DNA from: Methanocellales archaeon
GTDB taxonomy: Archaea > Halobacteriota > UBA148
Assembly: GCA_028715985.1 (NCBI GenBank)
Contig: JAQUQR010000001.1
Location: 267,905 to 331,904, forward strand
Length of the DNA stretch: 64,000 nt
Direction: 5' to 3'
Positions 3,396-32,983 of this stretch are shown piece after piece. Every line of letters begins with the position of its first letter. Position 1 is the stretch's first letter. The notes below the pieces were generated by a model. It saw nothing but the letters and a program-made list of their open reading frames with translations. It was not told where the DNA came from and did not search any database. A program made the translations under genes and the position numbers.

Positions 3396-3848
3396 TTAGT
3401 TATCTATCAGTCGTATCAAATTATTTTCCACTAACAAAGCCTCAGGGGAAAAAATATGGATAAAGTAGACCGAATAATATCGGCAGCAGGTATCATTGGC
3501 GGCATCGGGCTTGGGATGTTGTTGGGAAGTGAATAAATATTCCGGGAACCTCTTTTGGGAGCTGGCTTAATATCGATATTCATTGTTGTTCTGGGTGTAC
3601 TGTCCTACCCAAAGTAAGAAGAAGTTAGGGGAATAGAATAAATAAAAGGCTAATTAAAGGGATAGTGGGCGCCAGATTCAATTAAAATAGGCTATGCTTA
3701 AATTTCGCTTGGTGCGTCTTTGACAATCAAGTAATGAATTAACTCAGGGTTAAACGAATAAAAAGTGCGTTTGATAATAGTTATGTACAATCTTACTCGG
3801 AGCCTTTTTATACAAAAGAATTAAATACTTTATAACTAATCTAATATC

Positions 3849-4121
3849 ATGAATCCCCCATATATTATAATTTTAATATTAGCCTTGTTAATACTTTTGA
3901 TTGTAGTCTATTTTGTGATAGGTAAAAAGAGACATTTAAAAGATAATCCATGGAAAAACCTAAATAATGTTCAATTTATAGCGGGAATTTGTATTGCGCT
4001 AATTGGGGCTGGAATAATGTTTCATGGAAATGTCTTTGGAGAACGGAACTCAGGCATTGCCACAATTATAGGAATAATTGGTATAGGATTGATCGCTACA
4101 TCTTTTAGAATGCCAAAATGA
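3849..4121 (+). CDS. hypothetical small membrane protein (2 predicted TM)
   Basis: Two hydrophobic segments. AT-rich. No recognisable family. Confidence 0.3.
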   Translation: MNPPYIIILILALLILLIVVYFVIGKKRHLKDNPWKNLNNVQFIAGICIALIGAGIMFHGNVFGERNSGIATIIGIIGIGLIATSFRMPK

Positions 4122-4233
4122 AAAAGGCTCCTGCATCATACTGTCGGTCGCTTCGCTCAGAAACTTCTCATAAGCCGATACTTTATGTTCAATTCGGTCT
4201 CCTTTAAGTGGAATTCACCAGAAACGTTTATTA

Positions 4234-4648
4234 ATGGGTTTGTATTCGAAAACTCAGTATGAGTATCAATCACGACGCATCCGTGAAAAAGAAAGGAAAA
4301 TCAAAACCAAAGGACTATCTGGCGCGCAACTCACGCTATCACAGAAAGTTCGCGATCATGGTGGCAAAAAGTCCTCCCTATTTTTGAAAAAGAACGTCCA
4401 GATGATGATCGCCCGCGTAAAGCGATACAAGCGATCAGGGCTTGGGCGCAGGGAAAGCGGGAGCTGGGGTGCGGAAACTCTCGCTTGACTCGCATGCGGC
4501 TGCACGCGAATCTAAATCGGACGCAGCAAGATTCGCGGCTCGCGCAGCCGGACATGCCGTCGCAACTTGGCATGTGCCGACTCATGCCATGGGCGCGCCC
4601 ATATATGCTTGCAAAGCTATTGTCGCGAGCAAAGACAAAATACCCTAA
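4234..4648 (+). pseudogene. GC-rich bacterial-like gene fragment split across two overlapping frames (probable frameshifted remnant)
   Basis: A roughly 60% GC patch sits inside a roughly 30% GC intergenic region. Two overlapping ORFs (4234-4488 and 4442-4648) lie in different frames. Ala/Arg-rich product of the kind seen in high-GC bacteria. Confidence 0.25.
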
Positions 4649-4950
4649 CGAGGTAGGCTGAAAAAAATGCGGGCCGTGTTATGTCAGGCCTTTGCTAGGG
4701 AAGAACAAAGAAGTAAAGTCAGCTAGAACTCAAAAGGAAAGTTGCACTAAATTTTTGTCCTTCGGAGGATATAACGCGCATTAATCTCAGTTGCACCCCG
4801 TTGCGTCCAAATATGCCCCGCTACGCTCTGCGGTTAATGCGATATGTTAGTTGCTATTCGCTGCGAAAAACGAACTGAGGTCCTGCTACTCACTTTCGAT
4901 ACGATACAAAAAACATTTATCAATGTTAATACAACTAAAATAAAATAAAT

Positions 4951-5835
4951 ATGATTCAAAGAGATGTATTACAAAAGAGATTCAGGATTTTCATCTTGCT
5001 ATCTTTATTTATTTTGTTGATGGAGGTAGCGGGAGGTGTATTTACAAACAGCTTGGCATTGTTAAGTGATGCCGGGCACGTTCTCCTTGATTTACTGGCC
5101 CTTCTATTGGCTTATTTTTCAATACGGCTTTCGCAAAAGGTCGCGACCAAAAAATTTACATTTGGATTTTATAGGGCAGAAATCCTGATAGCAACTATAA
5201 ACGGTGCTATGCTCCTTTTTGTTACCCTCTATATTTTTTATGAATCTTATATTCGATTTTTGTCTCCTCAGCCGATAAGAGGGCCTGAAATGCTTATAAT
5301 TTCGGCTGTTGGGTTTTTAGCTAATTTATATGTTGTAGTAAAAATGCAGGGCTATGAAAAACAAAATCTGAATGTAAGGGGAGCGTATCTTCATGTATTG
5401 AGCGATACTCTGTCATCGGTAGGTGTTGTCATTGCAAGCATATTGATTGTCATTACAGGCAATTATGTTTTTGATCCCATAATAAGTGCAGTAATAGGGT
5501 TATTTATTTTAACAGGCTCTCTGCGATTGATAAGGGAATCTGCCCATATACTCATGGAAGCAACGCCCAAGAACATTGACTTAGAGAAATTGTCGAGAGA
5601 CATCCAAAAAATAAATGGTGTTAAAGAAATTCACGACCTGCATGTTTGGAGCATATCCTCAGATGTATACGCGCTTAGTTCTCATGTCTTGATAGATGCA
5701 GACAACATAAAATCCATGAACAAGATAGTTTCTAACATAAATGAGATGGTTAAATCAAAATATAACATAACCCATACTACGATACAATCTGAATGTGAGA
5801 CTTGTGTTGATGGCGACAATAAGCACGATCATTGA
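4951..5835 (+). CDS. cation diffusion facilitator family transporter (Co/Zn/Cd efflux)
   Basis: CDF membrane core (HVLLDLLALLLAY...FGFYRAEIL) and a C-terminal cytoplasmic domain with a His/Asp/Cys-rich tail. Confidence 0.85.
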   Translation: MIQRDVLQKRFRIFILLSLFILLMEVAGGVFTNSLALLSDAGHVLLDLLALLLAYFSIRLSQKVATKKFTFGFYRAEILIATINGAMLLFVTLYIFYESYIRFLSPQPIRGPEMLIISAVGFLANLYVVVKMQGYEKQNLNVRGAYLHVLSDTLSSVGVVIASILIVITGNYVFDPIISAVIGLFILTGSLRLIRESAHILMEATPKNIDLEKLSRDIQKINGVKEIHDLHVWSISSDVYALSSHVLIDADNIKSMNKIVSNINEMVKSKYNITHTTIQSECETCVDGDNKHDH

Positions 5836-5917
5836 TTACTTTTAAGGCAGGGCTTCCAACGCAACTTTTATTAGAAAATTATTTAAATAACCTAAATTAC
5901 GATTAGTCACACGGAAA

Positions 5918-6223
5918 ATGGAACAAAAATTTAATGCAATTACAATTATATTATTAATAATGCTTGTTATTAGACTTATCGTCCAGGTAATTCTATCTTT
6001 TAACAATTTGATTTCCCTTTCATTCGCTGCTTTATACCTTGCTGCTGTGGTAGGTGTGGTTTTGAAGCAAAAAAGTGGCTCAATATTGGCAGGAGTCATT
6101 GTAATAATTGATATACTTGCATCAGCGATATTTACAACTGGAGCGTATGCCTTTGGGGCAGTTTCCTATGATTTAATCTTGGGATTTTTGGCATATAAGG
6201 AATTTAAGCAGATTTCTGATTGA
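5918..6223 (+). CDS. hypothetical small membrane protein
   Basis: Three hydrophobic segments. No recognisable family. Confidence 0.3.
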   Translation: MEQKFNAITIILLIMLVIRLIVQVILSFNNLISLSFAALYLAAVVGVVLKQKSGSILAGVIVIIDILASAIFTTGAYAFGAVSYDLILGFLAYKEFKQISD

Positions 6224-16841: not shown

Positions 16842-16954
16842 GGACTTGTGGGGTAGTGGACTATCCTCTTGGGCTTCGGACACGAAGTTATCTACTCACT
16901 TTGAAAACTCAAGGAAGATACTCAAGGACCTGGGTTCAAATCCCAGCAGGTCCG
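16842..16954 (+). tRNA. probable intron-containing tRNA (anticodon uncertain; TCG for Arg if the loop is CTTCGG)
   Basis: Acceptor 5' GGACTTG pairs with 3' CAGGTCC (one G-U wobble). T8 is present. D-arm is GGGT/AGTGGACT/ATCC with GG in the loop. A perfect T-arm CTGGG-TTCAAAT-CCCAG is followed by the acceptor 3' strand and discriminator G. The span is about 113 nt, which implies an intron of about 40 nt. Confidence 0.4.
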
Positions 16955-24232: not shown

Positions 24233-24784
24233 ATTTTTTAGTTCGTGGAAGGCGACAAAACGTTCGGAAGCTAGTTTATAAAGAAGGCTTATCGTTGTTT
24301 TAGTTGGTAATGTTGCTAAATATGTAGAAAATGATTTGAGATACAAATTAAAAAAATCAGATAAACCTGCTGTTTTTGAATTACAGAGATTTAGGATCAA
24401 ATTGATTAATAAATCGGATAGTAAATCAAAAAATATTTTAGGTTTAGATATTCTAAATCTATTTAGATCAAGCTCATCTTCACAATATACACTGAAAGGC
24501 GGACTTCTACTTAAAATCAAAGATTTTACTCAAAAACATGATTTTCAGTTTAGCTTATTGAAAAAATAGTCTCTCTTATTGTAAAAAAAATTAAAAACGA
24601 GCGGTCATCTATTCAGTTGAACACAATGCTGTAGCTCTTCTTTAGCATGCGACCGCTCTTCTTTAGTACGCTTCTTTAGTATGCGAGCCCGATTTTAACA
24701 TTTATTATAACAGATATACTAGTTAGTTAAAAAATAAACAAAAACTATGCATATGCTGATATAATTACTATATTAATATCGACT

Positions 24785-26048: not shown

Positions 26049-27272
26049 ATGGGAGCGATGCGAGAAATCGAGCTTGAAGGTCATATTATCGATTCGATGG
26101 TCCTGACGAAGGTATTCGATAAGGTAATGGACATGGATGGCGAGTTTGAAATCCTGGAGTTCAGGATTGGAAAACGCAAGACTGAGCATAGCTATGCTCG
26201 CCTCATGATCGTCGGCGAGGATGATGCACATGTGGACAGAATCCTAAGCGAATTACATCGATTGGGTGCACGATTGCCAGAAATGGAGGATGCCATCTTG
26301 GAGAGAACGCCAGCTGACAAAGTCATCCCGAAGGGCTTTTACTCCACTACTAATCATCCGACCTATGTCAGGCATAACGGCAAATGGCTGACCGTCGAAG
26401 GCATAGGGATGGATTGTTTGATTCAGGTAGATGGTAATAGGGCCATATGCAAGCCGCTTTCACATGTTCGCAAGGGCGATTTGGTCGTGATCGGGCAAAG
26501 GGGGGTGCGTGTGATCCCGCCCGAGCGCCCAAGAAAAAGATCGATTTTCGAGTTCATGGGCAATGCCACCTCTTCTGAGAGGCCCTCAGAGACGTTGATT
26601 CATCAGATTGCCGAAGAAATAATTGACGTCAAAAATAAGGGCGGCAAGATCGCAGTGGTGTGTGGGCCCGCAATAGTTCACACTGGGGCGTCAGGTGCAC
26701 TCGCAGAGATGATCAAGAAAGGCTATGTGAGCGTCTTGTTGGCAGGAAATGCCTTGGCTGTTCATGATATCGAGTACAATCTGTATGGTACATCCCTCGG
26801 AATGGACATGGGGAAAGCGGAACCCGTGTCAGGAGGGCACAGACACCACATCTATGCGATCAGTGAAATCATGCGAGCTGGCTCCATAAGGGCTGCAGTG
26901 GAGCAGGGCATCATATCGGGAGGGATCATGTACGAATGCATTAAAAACGATACGCCCTTCGTGCTTGCCGGATCCATCAGGGATGATGGGCCCCTGCCAG
27001 ACGTCATAACGGATGTGATGGTGGCACAGGACAAGATGAGGGCTGCGGTAAAAGACGTCGATCTGGTGCTGATGATGGCTACGATGCTGCACTCCATAGC
27101 TGTCGGCAATCGTCTCCCATCCTATGTGAAGACCATTTTTATCGATATCAACCCTGCCACCGTGACGAAGATCATGGACAGGGGAACAGCTCAGGCAATG
27201 GGCATCGTGACAGATGTGGGAACGTTCCTGCCAATGTTGGTTGAAGAGCTGGGTAAGTTAGAGAATATGTGA
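26049..27272 (+). CDS. LOR/SDH-domain protein, TIGR00300 family (archaeal-type ornithine cyclodeaminase-like)
   Basis: About 400 aa conserved across archaea. Sits in the arg gene neighbourhood. Confidence 0.55.
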
Positions 27273-27630
27273 CGTTACTTTTATACAATTCAAGCATGGG
27301 AACATAGGACATTTATGTAGCATATAAACGAGGTAGGCGATATTTATTCCCAATGGAGATAGGCAATGTAGGAAGGACAAACTATCTATAAAAGATGACA
27401 ATTACAATGATTCTATTGTAAAATCAACTTTTTTCAATCATCACAGCCCTACTCAAATTCTATTTGAACCGTCATGTAAAACCACCTTTTCTGCTAGCCT
27501 GAGATTCTCATAGGTTTTTGGTTAGGTTAATAAATAAAATCTAAAGACAGTGCCCCTTATTTCTACAAGAGTGTGGCTAGATTTTTATTGATACGATGCT
27601 GTGTGTTTTTTGTCAATATTACTCAAAAAA

Positions 27631-27686
27631 TTGCTTAAATTAAGCAATATTCTAACTAATTAACTATATCAATAGTGACAATAACA
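27631..27686 (+). promoter_or_regulatory. promoter of the HD-TIR operon: palindromic operator TTGCTTAAATTAAGCAA (27631-27647), then TATA-like TTAACTATATCA and the conserved block TAGTGACAATA
   Basis: Same palindrome, TATA and TAGTGACAAT block as the promoters of cassette genes A and B. Confidence 0.55.
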
Positions 27687-27717
27687 TTTTAATACATAAG
27701 CGAGGGACACGTGCAAA

Positions 27718-29688
27718 ATGCAAGATGAACAAAAAGATCGTTGGGTAGGATGGATTAAAACTCCAGAATATAGAGAACGCCTGCAGACAATAGAGAACCG
27801 TGTTATACAACTGTCATCTAATGAAATCAACACTAGTGGTTATACACCCCACGATGCCAGTCACTGTTTGGCAGTTGAAAATATGGTAAAAACTTTAATT
27901 CAAAAAAGCGAAGCCAAACTTAGCGATTTAGAACAATTTATTCTTTTTGGTGCCGTATGGACGCATGACTTGGGAATGTTCATGGACATACGAGAGGCTT
28001 TTTTCGAGGACCAAAAACAAGAGGTTAAAAAAGGAGAGTATAAACTGCGAGTTGCTAGAGAGATACATGACAAGATTTCAGCATGGTACTTATCTTCTAA
28101 CTACAGTGAGATTCTAAAAATCCAGAGTGATGAAGATGGCCAATCAAAAACTATTATTGACAACTTGTTAAGAAACTATACCTACACTATAAATGTGATA
28201 AGTTGATTTCACCGTATAAGGGAAGACATAAAGGATTGTCCTAAAGAGAGATTACTAAAGGATGAGAAGATACGCACACGCCTATTAGCGTGTTTACTAA
28301 GATTAGGAGATACTTTGCATATTGACTCCAGTAGATTCGATGAAAAACTCTATGATGTCTTAGAAATAGGGCAACTACTGGATAGGAGTGCAAGACTTCA
28401 TTGGCTGAGGTCATATGTTGTGTCTGGTGTATATTTGGATCCTAAAAGTGAAACCATTTTTGTCAACATTGACTTGCCGATATCCTTGAAATCTCCCCAG
28501 AACAACGAATTAGATAGAACGGAGGAGATCAGAAATCTAGTGTCTGTGATTATTAATGACCTTTCCGAAGACGTGCTGGTTGTTAGAGGGACATTTAAGG
28601 ATTATGGTTTTCCCGCCTACGATAGAGTAGAACCCAATATATCTTTCATTCCAGGATATTCGGGAAAGGATGAGAAAGAAATAGAGGGTATGGTGAGTGA
28701 CCTTGGAGTTGTCCTTTTTCCTAATACATCTAGAGTCATAGAGAAAGCCCTTGATAGCATCACCGCTATATGTAATATCTATTTTGGAATTGAAGGTCAG
28801 AGATTTGATAGTCAGATGGATGAATTGTTGTCATATCTCGAAAGTGTACACGAGACTCGGCCCTGTCACGTTGGACTCCGCAAGATAATTGATGAAGCAC
28901 GTGATGTGTTTAATAATAGATCCTATCAGAATAAGAATAGGGGAGATGTATCAAGTCAGGATATAAAGAAATGTCAAGATAATATCTGCGCAAAACTCAA
29001 TGAAATCAAAGATAAAAGAGAAGGATATCTAAAAAGCCTGTATAAAAAATGTGAAGACAACTTGCTGGATGACTTCGAAAACATAATTCTTTTTGCATAC
29101 AGTGAAACAGTAACTCAATTTCTTGAAAAGTATGGTGAACACCACCCTTCATGGAAAGATCGAGTTAAACTCTATGTATTAGAGTGTGGTGGGAAAAGAC
29201 GTTTTACGCGCAACAATAACATAGACTACAATGATGGTATATATTACGCGTTCCAGCTATCAAAGCACGGTTTCAAGAAAAAAGATCAAATCATGTTGTT
29301 GCCAGACACATCCTTTGGTTCTCTTGCATACAACCTGAAGAATCAAAATATGGCAAAAAAGTCTTTGGTCCTATTTGGGGTTAATGGCATCGATAAAGAG
29401 AGCCATGACTGCGGGCACACATCTGGGCATCGCATGGTAGCAATCGTGGCACAAGAATCCAGAATCCAAGTCAAGGTTATTGCAGATAGTTTCAAGGTAG
29501 GGAAAATAGAGTGGAGCCCCATGCTTGAGAGACCCGCTCACTGGCTAACAGGCAAACGGGACATGTATAGTGACATAAAAAAACACAACATCAAACTGAC
29601 AAACTATTTAGAAGATAGAATTCCAATAGATCTAATAAATGAGATAATCAAAGATGGGGATAACATACCTGGAAAGGCTAAAAAATAA
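27718..29688 (+). CDS. HD-domain phosphohydrolase or nuclease fused to a large uncharacterised C-terminal region (about 656 codons); one in-frame TGA at 28204-28206 (candidate pseudogene or recoding)
   Basis: HD motifs are SHCLAV (His), WTHDLGM (His-Asp), REIHDKIS and LLRLGDTLHID. The last motif lies after the TGA in the same frame, so ORFs 27718-28206 and 28315-29688 form one reading frame. The C-terminal part includes a Gly-rich VLFGVNGIDKESHDCGHTSGH segment reminiscent of Rossmann-like ligand-binding folds. Confidence 0.6.
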
Positions 29689-30537
29689 ATGTCTGCAACT
29701 CGATTTAATCTTTCGCCTAATGATGTTGATGTATCCGATACAAAAATTTTTATTTCTTACAAAACGAAGGAATGGGAATACGCTAAAAAACTTAGCGAAG
29801 AACTGAGAAATTTAGGCTTTGGTATTATAATTGTTCCTCCACAACCATCAAGTTCTCCAAAAAAGAAGAATGAAGATATTAAAACATACCTTTCTGAACT
29901 AATAGATGATGCTGATTACATATGTATAATAGTCTCCGAAATGTCTCTCATGTCAGCTTGGGTTCAATACGAATTTAAGGAAGCTGCTAGTTTGATTGGT
30001 CGAGTTGTTTTCGTTAATAAAGATAATACGCAACTTTTTTCAGGATATGAAGCAGTTGATTACCTTCAAAAGGGATTTATATGGCGGAATTTATATGTAA
30101 AACATTCCACTCTTACATTACCGGAAATTACAAATGAGGGTGTAAATGAACTTGCTATACAATTACTAAATGATCCAGACGAAGGTTGGTATGATGGTCG
30201 AGTATCGGTTGGTCGAAGATGCCCAGCAAAAGGATTGCGTTATCAAAATAGGATGAAAAAATATGCCAGAGAGTGTGTTTTGGTAGATCCCAAATATGAG
30301 CATAAGTATGTTCTAGAGGTAATTCCATTTAATTGGAGCCAAATAGAATGCGATAAAGAAGATATGGAAGCTGTCTTAAAATCAATTATTCTGGATCGAG
30401 GACTCCTAAATCTTGAAAGATCTTTTCTTAATGATGAAGTAGACATTTTTCAAACTTGGTACTTCGTAACGGAATTTGAAGAATTTTTAGAAAAAGATGA
30501 TTTTGGTCTTAACGTTTTTGTTGTGTTAGAGCGCTGA
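29689..30537 (+). CDS. TIR-domain protein (N-terminal TIR of about 130 aa plus a C-terminal domain of unknown function)
   Basis: KIFISYKTKEWEYAKKLSEELRNLGFGIIIV matches the TIR betaA-alphaA-betaB segment. ADYICIIVSEMSLMSAWVQYEF matches the SxWCxxEL region that carries the putative catalytic Glu. The ATG directly abuts the HD gene's TAA. Confidence 0.65.
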   Translation: MSATRFNLSPNDVDVSDTKIFISYKTKEWEYAKKLSEELRNLGFGIIIVPPQPSSSPKKKNEDIKTYLSELIDDADYICIIVSEMSLMSAWVQYEFKEAASLIGRVVFVNKDNTQLFSGYEAVDYLQKGFIWRNLYVKHSTLTLPEITNEGVNELAIQLLNDPDEGWYDGRVSVGRRCPAKGLRYQNRMKKYARECVLVDPKYEHKYVLEVIPFNWSQIECDKEDMEAVLKSIILDRGLLNLERSFLNDEVDIFQTWYFVTEFEEFLEKDDFGLNVFVVLER

Positions 30538-30624
30538 TGGAACTTGATTTATATAAATATGGGGTGGAAGACTGTTCTATTTAAAGACTGCCTGCAATGG
30601 ACGGCTAACAGCGAACAAACGAAA

Positions 30625-30685
30625 TATAATATTTACAAATTGCTTTTCAACTTCGTTTGTTTTTTCGCAAAACGTTATTCCCCTA
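30625..30685 (+). terminator. hairpin with a 10-bp stem (AACAAACGAA...TTCGTTTGTT) followed by TTTTTCGC, downstream of the TIR gene
   Basis: Perfect inverted repeat with a loop of about 33 nt and a T-run. Confidence 0.35.
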
Positions 30686-30706
30686 ACCTCAACCACTACT
30701 CCACAA

Positions 30707-30762
30707 ACATCAAGGGATAGTCCAGCTTCTCATCATATCTCATAATTCCCGCGACCTTGGCA
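30707..30762. repeat. 56-bp perfect direct repeat, distal copy (duplicate of the mptD 3' end)
   Basis: Identical to 32662-32717. Confidence 0.9.
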
Positions 30763-30851
30763 ACTTGATTTAGGATACAAGCAGTTATGTGCAATTGAAA
30801 AAGTTCGCCTTTAGAATGTTTTATAAATTTCAAGTCGTTATTTAAAGAAAT

Positions 30852-31415
30852 ATGGAGCTGGGAAAAAAGCTATATGTAACCAATAGAAACGATTGGCGTT
30901 CATGGCTTGCTAAAAATTATGATAAAGAAAAAGAAATTTGGCTAATTTATTATAGAAAATCATCTGGCAAACAAAGAATACCATACAACGATGCTGTTGA
31001 AGAAGCACTCTGCTATGGATGGATAGATAGCAATCTCAAAGGTATTGATGAAGAAAAATTTGCCCAAAGATTTACTCCAAGAAAACCGAAAAGTAAGCTT
31101 TCAGAGATGAATAAAGAACGTGTTCTTCGCCTTATAGAACAAGATAAAATGACTTTCATTGGTCTTGCTTCCATAGAACACGTATTTGATACAAACCAAA
31201 AAAATAAAAAATTAACAATTGCTCCTGATATTTTGAAAACCCTTAAACAAGACAATGAAGTTTGGAAAAACTTCCAGAAATTTCCTGACCCATACAAACG
31301 TATTCGTATCGGTTGGGTAGAAGGAGCTAGAACTCGCCCGAAACTTTTTAACCAGAGATTAAATTATTTTCTTAAGATGACAGCAAAGGATAAAAAATAT
31401 GGGAAGGTACAGTAA
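30852..31415 (+). CDS. YdeI/OmpD-associated family protein
   Basis: N-terminal WRSWL...EIWLIYY and CYGWIDS motifs characteristic of this family. Confidence 0.65.
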   Translation: MELGKKLYVTNRNDWRSWLAKNYDKEKEIWLIYYRKSSGKQRIPYNDAVEEALCYGWIDSNLKGIDEEKFAQRFTPRKPKSKLSEMNKERVLRLIEQDKMTFIGLASIEHVFDTNQKNKKLTIAPDILKTLKQDNEVWKNFQKFPDPYKRIRIGWVEGARTRPKLFNQRLNYFLKMTAKDKKYGKVQ

Positions 31416-31705
31416 TAAAATGACGGCGCACTTCTTCGCAACTTCGTTGCTCGACCATGTTGCACTCTCGCCTTCGGCTCGGGGCACATAACAGCGATTA
31501 ACAGGTTCAGCTCTTAGAGAGCCTCAACCCAAATTTACTTCGCAAACTTCTATTAATCGTATAGGTTAGGCGACATGCCTTCTTTATCTTTTAAGTAGTT
31601 TTCCAGCTAAACTTTAAGGATAAAGGGGCAAAACAAAATTTTTGATATAATGAAGTCAATTCAAGTCAAAAGACATTTAAATACTTATTAACCAAATTTA
31701 AACCT

Positions 31706-32104
31706 ATGAAAGGATTTACCACAAACATCGAAAAAGACACCTTAAAAAACGAAAATTTCCGCAAGGTACTATACACCTCAAAACACAGCCAACTGGTTCT
31801 GATGAGTTTAAAGCCCAATGAGGACATCGGTATGGAAGTTCATTGGGAAAACGATCAATTCTTCCGCTTTGAAAAAGGGCAGGGAAAGTGCATCATTGAC
31901 GGCAACGAATATAAAATTGGTGATGGTATAGCCGTTGTTGTGCCTGCCGGGGCGAAACACAATATTATTAACACATCGGATAAAGAAGAATTGAAGCTTT
32001 ATACAATATATTCTCCTGCTCACCATAAAGATGGTATTGTCAGGGCTACTAAAAAAGAAGCAGAGGCTAGGGAAGCAGAATTTGATGGTGTAACGACTGA
32101 ATAG
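31706..32104 (+). CDS. cupin domain protein
   Basis: Cupin motifs G(x)5HxH-like (MEVHWEND) and a GxxxxxPxGxxH-like motif (VVVPAGAKHNIIN). Confidence 0.7.
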   Translation: MKGFTTNIEKDTLKNENFRKVLYTSKHSQLVLMSLKPNEDIGMEVHWENDQFFRFEKGQGKCIIDGNEYKIGDGIAVVVPAGAKHNIINTSDKEELKLYTIYSPAHHKDGIVRATKKEAEAREAEFDGVTTE

Positions 32105-32282
32105 AATAATTTCTTGAAAAGATTTTTGCAAGCGGCAAAGTAAAATGAAAGATAAAAAATGTGACAACAGCAGATAACAAGTGGATAAAGGGGAAATCAA
32201 AGATTTCCCGGATTGCCTTCAACAACCTCTTTTATCTGCAAATCGTTATACGCCATTAACTCGTTCAAGGAGAAGATAAAAT

Positions 32283-32645
32283 ATGATTGACATCATTTTA
32301 TACTTATTAATCGGTTTATTTGCAGGGTTTGTCAGCGGGTTAATCGGCATCGGCGGTGGAGTCATTATCGTGCCGATATTGATTTATCTGTTGGGTCTAA
32401 CACAGCACCAAGCACAAGGGACAACCTTGGCTTTGTTAATTCCCCCAATCGGTTTGTTAGCTGCTTGGACCTACTACAAGCATGGTTATGTAAATTTCAC
32501 TATAGCGGTTTTTGTTTGCTTGGGTTTTTTTATCGGAGGATTGTTTGGTGCAAAGTTAGCTGTGGGATTGTCAAATGAAACACTGCGAAAGGTCTTTGGG
32601 GTTGCATTGCTGTTAGTAGCTTTATACATGATTTTTAAGAGATGA
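32283..32645 (+). CDS. TSUP (TauE/SafE) family half-size membrane transporter
   Basis: Four TM helices with GLIGIGGGVI.VPIL motifs. Confidence 0.7.
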   Translation: MIDIILYLLIGLFAGFVSGLIGIGGGVIIVPILIYLLGLTQHQAQGTTLALLIPPIGLLAAWTYYKHGYVNFTIAVFVCLGFFIGGLFGAKLAVGLSNETLRKVFGVALLLVALYMIFKR

Positions 32646-32650
32646 GCCCC

Positions 32651-32983
32651 CTACTCTATAGACATCAAGGGATAGTCCAGCTTCTCATCATATCTCATAA
32701 TTCCCGCGACCTTGGCAGAGCCATATTGCACCTCTATGTGCACGTCCAGCATCCTGCCCTCCAGCTCGCAATAGCCGAATTTATTCAGCTTTTCCTGGAC
32801 CCTGTCGCGGTCTATCAAGACCTTTGCGCTTAACACGTATGGCTGAGCTGAGACGCTCTTCTCGATGGCGCGCTCTAAGCTGTCCAGCGTCTCCATGTTG
32901 AGGGGTGCGCCCGTATACTGGTGATACAGCGCCCCCAGCTTGATGCCAAGCTCGAATAACGCGCGCTCTCTATCCGATCGCAT
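32651..32983 (-). CDS. dihydroneopterin aldolase, archaeal MptD-like (assignment tentative)
   Basis: About 110 aa. Resembles the COG2098 family. Its 3'-terminal 56 bp are duplicated at 30707-30762. Confidence 0.45.
   Translation of the reverse strand: MRSDRERALFELGIKLGALYHQYTGAPLNMETLDSLERAIEKSVSAQPYVLSAKVLIDRDRVQEKLNKFGYCELEGRMLDVHIEVQYGSAKVAGIMRYDEKLDYPLMSIE
32662..32717. repeat. 56-bp perfect direct repeat, proximal copy (within the 3' end of mptD)
   Basis: Identical to 30707-30762. Confidence 0.9.

Follow-up and report, generated by a model that had tools for sequence, protein, structure and literature searches.

The window analysed here is a 64,000-nt stretch from a Methanocellales archaeon (GenBank assembly GCA_028715985.1, contig JAQUQR010000001.1, positions 267,905 to 331,904 of the forward strand), and our subject is the 5.4 kb of it lying between the gene for an ornithine cyclodeaminase (OCD) and mptD, which encodes an archaeal dihydroneopterin aldolase. 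A first-pass annotation had drawn attention to a perfect 56-bp direct repeat at this locus, one copy of which belongs to the 3′ end of mptD, and had read it as the footprint of a three-gene insert. The parts of the locus are given below in the order in which they lie; loci fetched for comparison carry the labels L001, L002 and so on.

26049–27272, plus strand: OCD, the left anchor of the hotspot (TIGR00300, 4e-195; syntenic in L002–L005, L025, L040 and L043).
27273–27332, plus strand: site1, directly 3′ of the OCD stop codon and ending ...AACGAG|GTAGGC, a candidate primary insertion site (attI- or attG-like).
27333–30674, plus strand: site1-proximal cargo, comprising an HD-CE/IF-2B-like open reading frame (ORF, 27718–29688), a TIR gene (29689–30537) and hairpin H0 (30606–30677), as judged from Pfam, PADLOC, translation and folding.
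30675–30695, plus strand: the hexamer TTATTC and a copy of the native mptD-downstream spacer, CCCTAACCTCAACCA, which matches the mptD-downstream spacers of L001 and L002.
30696–30762, minus strand: mptD′, a 67-nt copy of the mptD 3′ end that contains the distal 56-mer and has decayed orthologous fragments in relatives.
30763–30784, plus strand: half-site1, ACTTGATTTAGGATACAAGCAG, ending at G|TTATGT and homologous to the 3′ half of site1.
30785–31565, plus strand: cassette Y, a YdeI/OmdA gene with its own promoter (ORF 30852–31415) and hairpin H1 (31489–31568).
31566–32245, plus strand: cassette C, a cupin gene (31706–32104) and hairpin H2 (32165–32248); homology blocks break at 32245–32251 in four comparisons.
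32246–32650, plus strand: unit T, a TSUP/TauE gene (32283–32645) without a hairpin, ending 5 nt short of the mptD stop codon.
32651–32983, minus strand: mptD, the right anchor, whose 3′ end carries the proximal 56-mer (32662–32717; PF04038, 2e-42; exact protein on three contigs).

The low-G+C tract (33–39% versus 47–52% in the host) exceeds the segment bounded by the repeat and takes in the whole 5.4 kb from OCD to mptD. The two copies of the repeat (30707–30762 and 32662–32717, both read on the plus strand) have no mismatch over 56 nt, lie in direct orientation 1,955 bp apart from start to start, and are the only two in the window, where none is expected by chance (100 shuffles); a third copy with up to three mismatches was not found within the window. 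The exact 56-mer is absent from other loci among the 46 fetched, its sole match being a copy of the same contig. Without gaps the repeat can be extended to 70 nt at 94% identity (30693–30762/32648–32717), a length that covers the mptD stop codon (in complement). The proximal copy, as had been proposed, forms the 3′ terminus of a full-length minus-strand aldolase gene, and the far-end copy is indeed a displaced partial copy of that gene end, reading ...PLMFVE* at its C-terminus where the true mptD reads ...PLMSIE*. The intervening ORFs are also those named at first, namely a YdeI/OmdA-like protein, a cupin and a half-size TauE/TSUP protein.

Versions of this locus were obtained from eight related genomes by MptD scans and cassette-protein look-ups, and a metagenome MptD scan added one close locus. 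The core proteins of five GTDB relatives are 78–96% identical to those of the window. Read from OCD to mptD, the versions are as follows.

L025: nothing between OCD and mptD; the stop codons overlap (GCTACTCTATAA).
L003 and L005: OCD, TSUP, mptD.
L002: OCD, a 393-aa gene, cupin, TSUP, mptD.
L043: OCD, a different TIR gene (TIR′), cupin, mptD.
L040: OCD, complete site1, YdeI, H1, cupin leader, contig end.
L004: OCD, a RelA/SpoT-like gene (PDC-S33 candidate), mptD fragment, YdeI, cupin, mptD.
L001 and L042: ...TSUP, mptD fragment, YdeI, cupin, mptD.
Window: OCD, HD-CE/IF-2B-like gene and TIR gene, mptD fragment, YdeI, cupin, TSUP, mptD.

From this comparison, the YdeI, cupin and TSUP genes are found in five different subsets, always in the mutual order Y>C>T. 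Since the relatives hold TSUP alone (L003, L005), TSUP with cupin (L002), cupin with YdeI (L001, L004), cupin alone (L043), or YdeI as the first gene after OCD (L040), the three genes are separate units, and the first-pass view of them as one element does not hold. Unit T is missing in L004, L043 and L025, as well as in the mptD-proximal copy of L001, and its leader (TTATAC GCCATT...) comes straight after site1 in L003 and L005 and after H2 in L002 and the window. The 5′ part of site1 is conserved with L002, L003 and L005 to about 27301–27309, and the cargo after it differs from genome to genome, mostly from AG|TTA onwards. Seven differing neighbours follow site1 or its half copy: unit T (L003, L005), the 393-aa gene (L002), the RelA-like gene (L004), TIR′ (L043), HD-CE/TIR (window) and YdeI (L040, and after the half-site). 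A serial-insertion hotspot, as first suggested, is therefore borne out by an OCD/mptD junction that is empty in L025 and carries differing cargo in eight other versions.

Two details at the anchors may be mentioned here. The OCD protein ends in ...VEELATL* at the empty site of L025 and in ...LENM* or ...LESK* at occupied sites (window 27240–27272); the founding insertion would have swapped the last OCD codons and abolished the stop-codon overlap with mptD. At the other end, the stop codons of mptD and TSUP are 5 nt apart in the window (32646–32650, GGGGC in the mptD orientation) as against 18–21 nt in L001–L005, and about 14 nt seem to have been lost from the window spacer.

We favour, as the probable account of these data, that an old partial duplication left the repeat as a scar, that this scar was recently homogenised, and that it lies inside an integrase-less, integron-like array of separately acquired genes at the convergent OCD/mptD junction of this UBA148-class archaeon. 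The first line of evidence is the presence of orthologous, decayed fragments with in-frame stops in L001 (11840–11906), L042 and L004 (7967–8036); the duplication is thus an ancient feature with diverged copies in two other species and three genomes, the mismatches being 6/56 (L001/L042) and 8/56 (L004). The right-hand junction of the fragment, TTGGCA|ACTTGA..., is identical in the window, L001/L042 and L004, and because it is common to all of them the fragment must have arisen once. All three fragments also end in FVE*/TAG, and the real mptD ends vary among species.

The sequences on both sides of the fragment are equally informative. To its right, the 22 nt at 30763–30784 (ACTTGATTTAGGATACAAGCAG|TTATGT) show homology to site1 of L002, L003 and L005 in its 3′ half, with 21/27 matches to L003 and the same AG|TTA end; the un-duplicated state is seen in L040, in which a complete site1 precedes YdeI. 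To its left is the copy of the native mptD-downstream spacer, giving a scar order of spacer, last 67 nt of mptD and second half of site1; mptD and half-site1 meet with a microhomology of about 1 nt. Since the scar links a point in mptD, 67 nt before the gene ends, with mid-site1, a partial tandem duplication is indicated: the junction brings together two chromosomal points, is inherited in relatives, and bears a sharply bounded identity tract in one lineage.

In an ancestor shared by at least three species, or exchanged among them, the distal part of the array would have been tandemly duplicated from mid-site1 to a point 67 nt inside mptD. Such an event would leave behind a scar made of the spacer copy, the mptD′ fragment and half-site1, and later gain and loss of cassettes would have set the two array copies apart. 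YdeI, cupin and TSUP would then sit between the scar and the real mptD end because the two copies became differentiated in this manner. The gene order of L001, which looks like a cyclic permutation, had been considered as a sign of circular multi-cassette intermediates; this idea was rejected, as duplication followed by differential loss explains it.

Why the two copies should be identical in this genome can be seen from the distribution of mismatches. When each fragment is compared with its own gene end over the first 56 nt, the window has 0/56 mismatches against 6/56 in L001 and 8/56 in L004, the latter two with in-frame stops; directly after the identical tract, the window has 3/11 mismatches (Fisher p=0.003). 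Because the identity block is sharp-edged, is confined to a single lineage and lies in an old duplication, we infer a recent gene-conversion tract, which would have made 56 nt of the scar match the functional gene end; elsewhere the scar decays. The window 56-mer has 5 mismatches to the real ends of the nearest relatives versus 7–8 to the other fragments, weakly suggesting that the conversion ran from the real gene to the scar.

The integron-like character of the array comes chiefly from its hairpins. H0, H1 and H2 are imperfect hairpins of about 70–85 nt, located 3′ of the TIR, YdeI and cupin genes on the same strand, and they have a common design: (T/C)AAC, 1–2 nt, a stem arm, a loop, a second stem arm, about 5 nt and GTTA. 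Their AAC and GTT termini are those of attC sites, with a non-canonical spacer geometry. The stems differ in sequence yet still pair (GCGA/TCGC, CGATTAA/TTAATCG and GCAGATA/TATCTGC, with GTGGATA/TATCCAC in relatives). A strict TAAC/GTTA pattern gave 5 matches versus 0.83 expected (P about 0.002), all on the plus strand just 3′ of ORFs; over the remaining loci fetched, 518 kb in total, it yielded just 2 weak, non-orthologous matches. The 3′ halves of the hairpins align as one family (...CTTCxxAACTTCTTTTATCxGCAAAxCG|TTAxxC), and with an nhmmer profile built from these halves a search of 615 kb brought up no additional member; a dispersed element of the miniature inverted-repeat transposable element type was rejected on that basis. 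Two other readings of the hairpins have provisionally been set aside, an IS200/IS605-type palindrome-associated transposable element, as each unit has one hairpin and not two, and a Xer/dif module, as no 28-bp dif-like core is evident.

The boundaries of the units agree with this picture. Ends of homology blocks coincide with G|TTA at 32245–32251 (four comparisons) and at 30680 (one comparison, with L004); unit T at its right end, and L002 and L043 in their hybrid hairpins, are exceptions to the G|TT boundaries. The most variable cassettes adjoin site1, and the distal units are shared. With a primary site, the newest cassettes proximal to it, a homogeneous family of hairpins and G|TT junctions, the locus appears to behave like an integron array, and we refer to its hairpin sites as attC-like.

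H2 shows a further peculiarity. In the window (32165–32248) and in the orthologues of L001, L002, L004 and L043, it has two tandem 5′ modules, ACAAC-A-GCAGATAA and ATAAC-A-GTGGATAAAA, and a 3′ arm that differs by species (TATCTGC, TATCCGC or TATCCAC) and pairs with one 5′ module or the other. H2 would thus be a hairpin that switches register rather than making simple compensatory changes.

Similar signals were noticed elsewhere in the window. At 3396–5970 on the plus strand there is a possible second cassette locus, with small unknown ORFs at 3849–4121 and 4234–4488 followed by a hairpin at 4772–4849 (TAAC-G-CGCATTAA...TTAATGCG-ATAT-GTTAG, of H1-like design), then a cation-efflux gene and a weaker, AT-rich match at 5862–5969; the H0–H2 profile did not recover the 3′ half of the 4772–4849 hairpin. 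The 12-mer AACGAGGTAGGC occurs both at 4647–4658 and at the end of site1 (27327–27338), with 0 occurrences expected by chance, and may be a shared recombination-site core. The equivalent position of site1 reads AACGAG|TTAGGT in L004 and GACGAG|TTAAGC in L043.

Integrons have been reported from 75 genomes of archaea assembled from metagenomes, mostly as clusters of attC sites lacking an integron integrase (CALINs; Ghaly et al. 2022, Sci Adv, PMC9668308). Among them is GCA_002495885.1 (UBA148, the source of L003), for which IntegronFinder reported IntI and 2 attCs on DAHG01000063.1 (PMC9668308 Data S1/S3) and which is also listed with a 4-attC CALIN on DAHG01000023.1 (PMC9668308); the OCD–mptD contig of UBA148 is not among the contigs listed there (PMC9668308). 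Since UBA148 is listed with IntI and attCs, a trans-acting integron integrase is plausible in this clade. Integron integrases can also insert cassettes at genomic GWT sites ('attG'), seeding small integrase-less arrays, and excision can be imprecise (Loot et al., 10.1101/2022.09.11.507474). The recombinase that moves the cassettes would act in trans and would most plausibly be an integron-type integrase.

A number of observations weigh against this account. As to the recombinase, the precomputed Pfam annotation of all called genes over about 66 kb (contig JAQUXB010000001.1, GCA_028692575.1, positions 36.7–102.7 kb) contains no integrase, transposase or other recombinase, either between the repeats, as originally noted, or in the rest of that region. 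A covariance model (R1) of five experimentally validated archaeal attCs (PMC9668308 Data S9), with 17 base pairs, was run over the window with filters off and gave only hits of E>1, none on H0–H2, the model being narrow and without a positive control. A search of the island with Rfam was negative, both at gathering thresholds and with E≤1. A loose pattern (AAC...GTT with 7-nt arms) is not enriched (16 versus 13 expected), and the R-like box is set off from the stem by 1–2 nt (5′ side) or about 5 nt (3′ side), a spacing unlike that of the canonical R/L-box layout. Unit T lacks a hairpin and ends on the right at a point other than G|TT; some site1 junctions lack GTT (GAG|GTA in the window, GAG|AGC in L040). 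The hairpin before cupin in L002 (island 1580–1690) and L043 (6778–6866) keeps 31–75 nt of H1 despite a different preceding gene, and such hybrids are not predicted by pure G|TT crossover, so that homogeneity of the attC family or homologous recombination is needed to explain them. The sample consists of nine versions of the locus, and the direction of conversion rests on a difference of 5 versus 7–8 mismatches.

The same observations lend strength to the best-surviving alternative, in which no site-specific recombination took place: the hairpins would be regulatory or terminator-like repeats, and the differences among genomes would be due to deletion, homologous recombination between repeats, and illegitimate insertion at a permissive convergent spot. 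It is consistent with the failure of the canonical attC model to match anything, the lack of enrichment of the loose pattern, the invariant cassette order, the absence of a recombinase nearby, and hybrid hairpins in L002 and L043 that resemble homologous exchange within repeats. We nevertheless regard it as a possible but doubtful explanation. Breakpoints recur at the same G|TTA, unrelated cargo is found at one fixed point beside site1 in six genomes, the AAC...GTT termini enclose stems that differ in sequence and still pair, the foreign genes have each gained a repeat missing from the donor-like locus, and a sister genome is reported with an integron integrase and attCs.

A second alternative accepts the old scar and ascribes its identity to a circular segment carrying YdeI, cupin and TSUP that was excised and re-integrated, or taken up from a close relative, by means of the homology at the mptD end. 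Direct repeats 1,955 bp apart would permit this; the cupin–H2–TSUP–mptD arrangement is common to the window and L002, as expected from homologous exchange of the segment, and between window and relatives the cassette blocks are slightly more conserved (92–93% nt identity) than the flanking core DNA (87–90%). The route is unlikely, however, as it requires the 56-mers of donor and recipient to have been identical already, and the abrupt change from 0/56 to 3/11 mismatches is explained more simply by a conversion tract.

The origin of the cargo bears both on the proposed array of separately acquired genes and on a third possibility. The cargo adjacent to site1 is variable and often defence-like: HD-CE and TIR in the window, the PDC-S33 candidate in L004, the 393-aa protein in L002 and TIR′ in L043. 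The HD-CE/TIR cargo of the window occurs in none of the relatives, and in PADLOC the TIR protein had only weak ThsB-like matches and the HD-CE protein had none. The 'HD-CE' and 'IF-2B-like' ORFs are one 656-codon frame (27718–29688) split by a single in-frame TGA at 28204–28206, which is either a nonsense mutation of a defence-like gene or a sequencing error; as it reads, the gene upstream of TIR is probably inactive.

For the distal cassettes, close counterparts exist in other archaea. YdeI with its promoter (30810–31428) is 89.7% identical in nt sequence to a Woesearchaeota locus (L038, 5959–6577), the match stopping 13 nt past the stop codon and before H1; with a Pacearchaeota locus (L039), 30784–31417 has 82.8% nt identity, and this match stops 2 nt past the stop codon, again before H1. 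The cupin gene with flanks of about 30 nt has 82.8% nt identity to a Nanoarchaeota locus (L044, 349–806) that lacks H2, and the cupin protein has counterparts of 83–89% identity in DPANN archaea, Patescibacteria and other methanogens. The small-protein family that includes TSUP is widespread in a similar way. The low G+C content and the close DPANN counterparts without hairpins argue that the cargo genes are of foreign origin, and the small cassette genes appear to circulate across phyla and domains. On this view each cassette would consist of a gene from outside and a repeat peculiar to the array, a composition also inferred for the chromosomal integrons of bacteria.

Carried further, this leads to the third possibility, in which the locus, instead of a degenerate integron, would be an archaeal cassette platform of its own kind: a site fixed at the side of a core gene would take up, time and again, foreign genes with their own promoters from donors of the DPANN or candidate phyla radiation type, each then gaining an array-specific hairpin missing from its donor-like locus. 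We consider this decidedly improbable. If it were true, the step by which a gene becomes a cassette would, as happens rarely, be visible, with 'before' and 'after' sequences both in hand, and the recombinase might have site requirements unlike those of known IntI enzymes.

The first-pass annotation had itself favoured site-specific integration. Spelled out as a full model, a 1.9-kb YdeI–cupin–TSUP element, whose attP mimics the mptD 3′ end, would have been integrated by an integrase supplied in trans, leaving the 56-mers as attL and attR. A perfect direct repeat at a gene 3′ end, a reconstituted gene end and the low G+C content of the insert speak for such a model. It is nonetheless very improbable in view of the data given above. 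The three genes occur separately in relatives, the junction is shared with other species in which the copies have decayed, and the element-side arm of the distal copy is no attP arm but the 3′ half of the chromosomal site1. The uniform FVE*/TAG ends of the fragments, set against real ends that differ by species, point to a single origin and not to repeated integrations, and no integrase lies beside the insert or within about 66 kb. The other option raised at first, a target-site duplication, is contradicted by the repeat length of 56–70 nt, the lack of terminal inverted repeats at the inner edges of the repeat, and the lack of a transposase. The first-pass interpretation is therefore upheld as to the hotspot and serial insertion and fails as to the integration footprint.

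An assembly artefact, in which a metagenome assembler equalised the copies or mis-joined a segment, can practically be dismissed despite the metagenomic source and a length of 56 close to common k-mer sizes, because the sequences flanking the two copies differ on either side, leaving no poppable bubble, because the repeat ends on the right at a biological junction that L001 and L004 also have, and because for MptD, YdeI and cupin alike the exact protein is recorded on three contigs.

Two features outside the locus are recorded for completeness. Between argJ and a small zinc-ribbon gene, the window has a patch of about 28% G+C (24233–24780) with no convincing ORF, where L043 has a 170-aa ORF; it may be another variable spot. 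At 16842–16954, Rfam calls a tRNA of 113 nt (39.9 bits) and ARAGORN reports none, which is consistent with an intron-containing archaeal tRNA.

Taken together, these results indicate that a perfect repeat of a gene end need not be an att site; the repeat itself would be an ordinary scar of duplication and conversion. In its present form it should allow the 1,955-bp segment to be excised or amplified by homologous recombination. The locus is a compact and comparatively well-sampled archaeal cassette array from a lineage already reported to have an integron integrase, and as its repeats escape the validated-attC model, surveys relying on such models may undercount archaeal arrays. The making of integron cassettes is a long-standing question, for which the locus supplies concrete test sequences: two of its cassettes have near-identical non-cassette counterparts in DPANN archaea (about 90% and 83% nt identity), which delimit what was added on becoming a cassette. 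It also documents recent gene flow, defence genes included, from DPANN-like donors to a methanogen-related host.

Sedentary chromosomal integrons, such as those bearing the Vibrio cholerae repeats of Vibrio, have species-specific, homogeneous attC families. The present array resembles them in its mutually homologous repeats, in having older cassettes distal and variable ones by the primary site, and in its defence cargo, but it has only 3–4 units and no intI or Pc platform, and its host is an archaeon. With the archaeal integrons (PMC9668308) it shares tandem single-ORF cassettes with AAC...GTT hairpins, G|TT junctions, the lack of an adjacent integrase that is seen in most archaeal cases, and TIR and cupin cargo; it differs in hairpins missed by the validated-attC model, in spacer geometry, in cassettes with their own promoters and in a site anchored after a core gene. 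We therefore treat the array as a CALIN variant, without counting it among the proven CALINs. Insertion at attG, giving single attC sites lacking integron integrases (SALINs) or small CALINs (10.1101/2022.09.11.507474), is similar in seeding an integrase-less array at a non-att site with a GWT core and in imperfect excisions that alter the flanks. That process has been shown only in E. coli with IntI1–3 (10.1101/2022.09.11.507474), whereas the site described here is reused and conserved across species, which makes it more attI-like. Elements integrating into the 3′ ends of genes or tRNAs (tyrosine-integrase islands, archaeal pNOB8- and SSV-type elements) likewise have a direct repeat of the gene end, with the whole gene at one edge and part of it copied at the far edge; unlike them, our locus has no integrase, a content that is not a unit, a chromosomal half-site1 as partner, and old, diverged copies in other species. 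Segmental tandem duplication with gene conversion accounts for a junction of separate chromosomal points, about 1 nt of microhomology, inheritance in several species and a sharp identity block in one lineage; the difference is that the duplicated segment here is a cassette array, the copies of which have diverged in gene content by cassette turnover.

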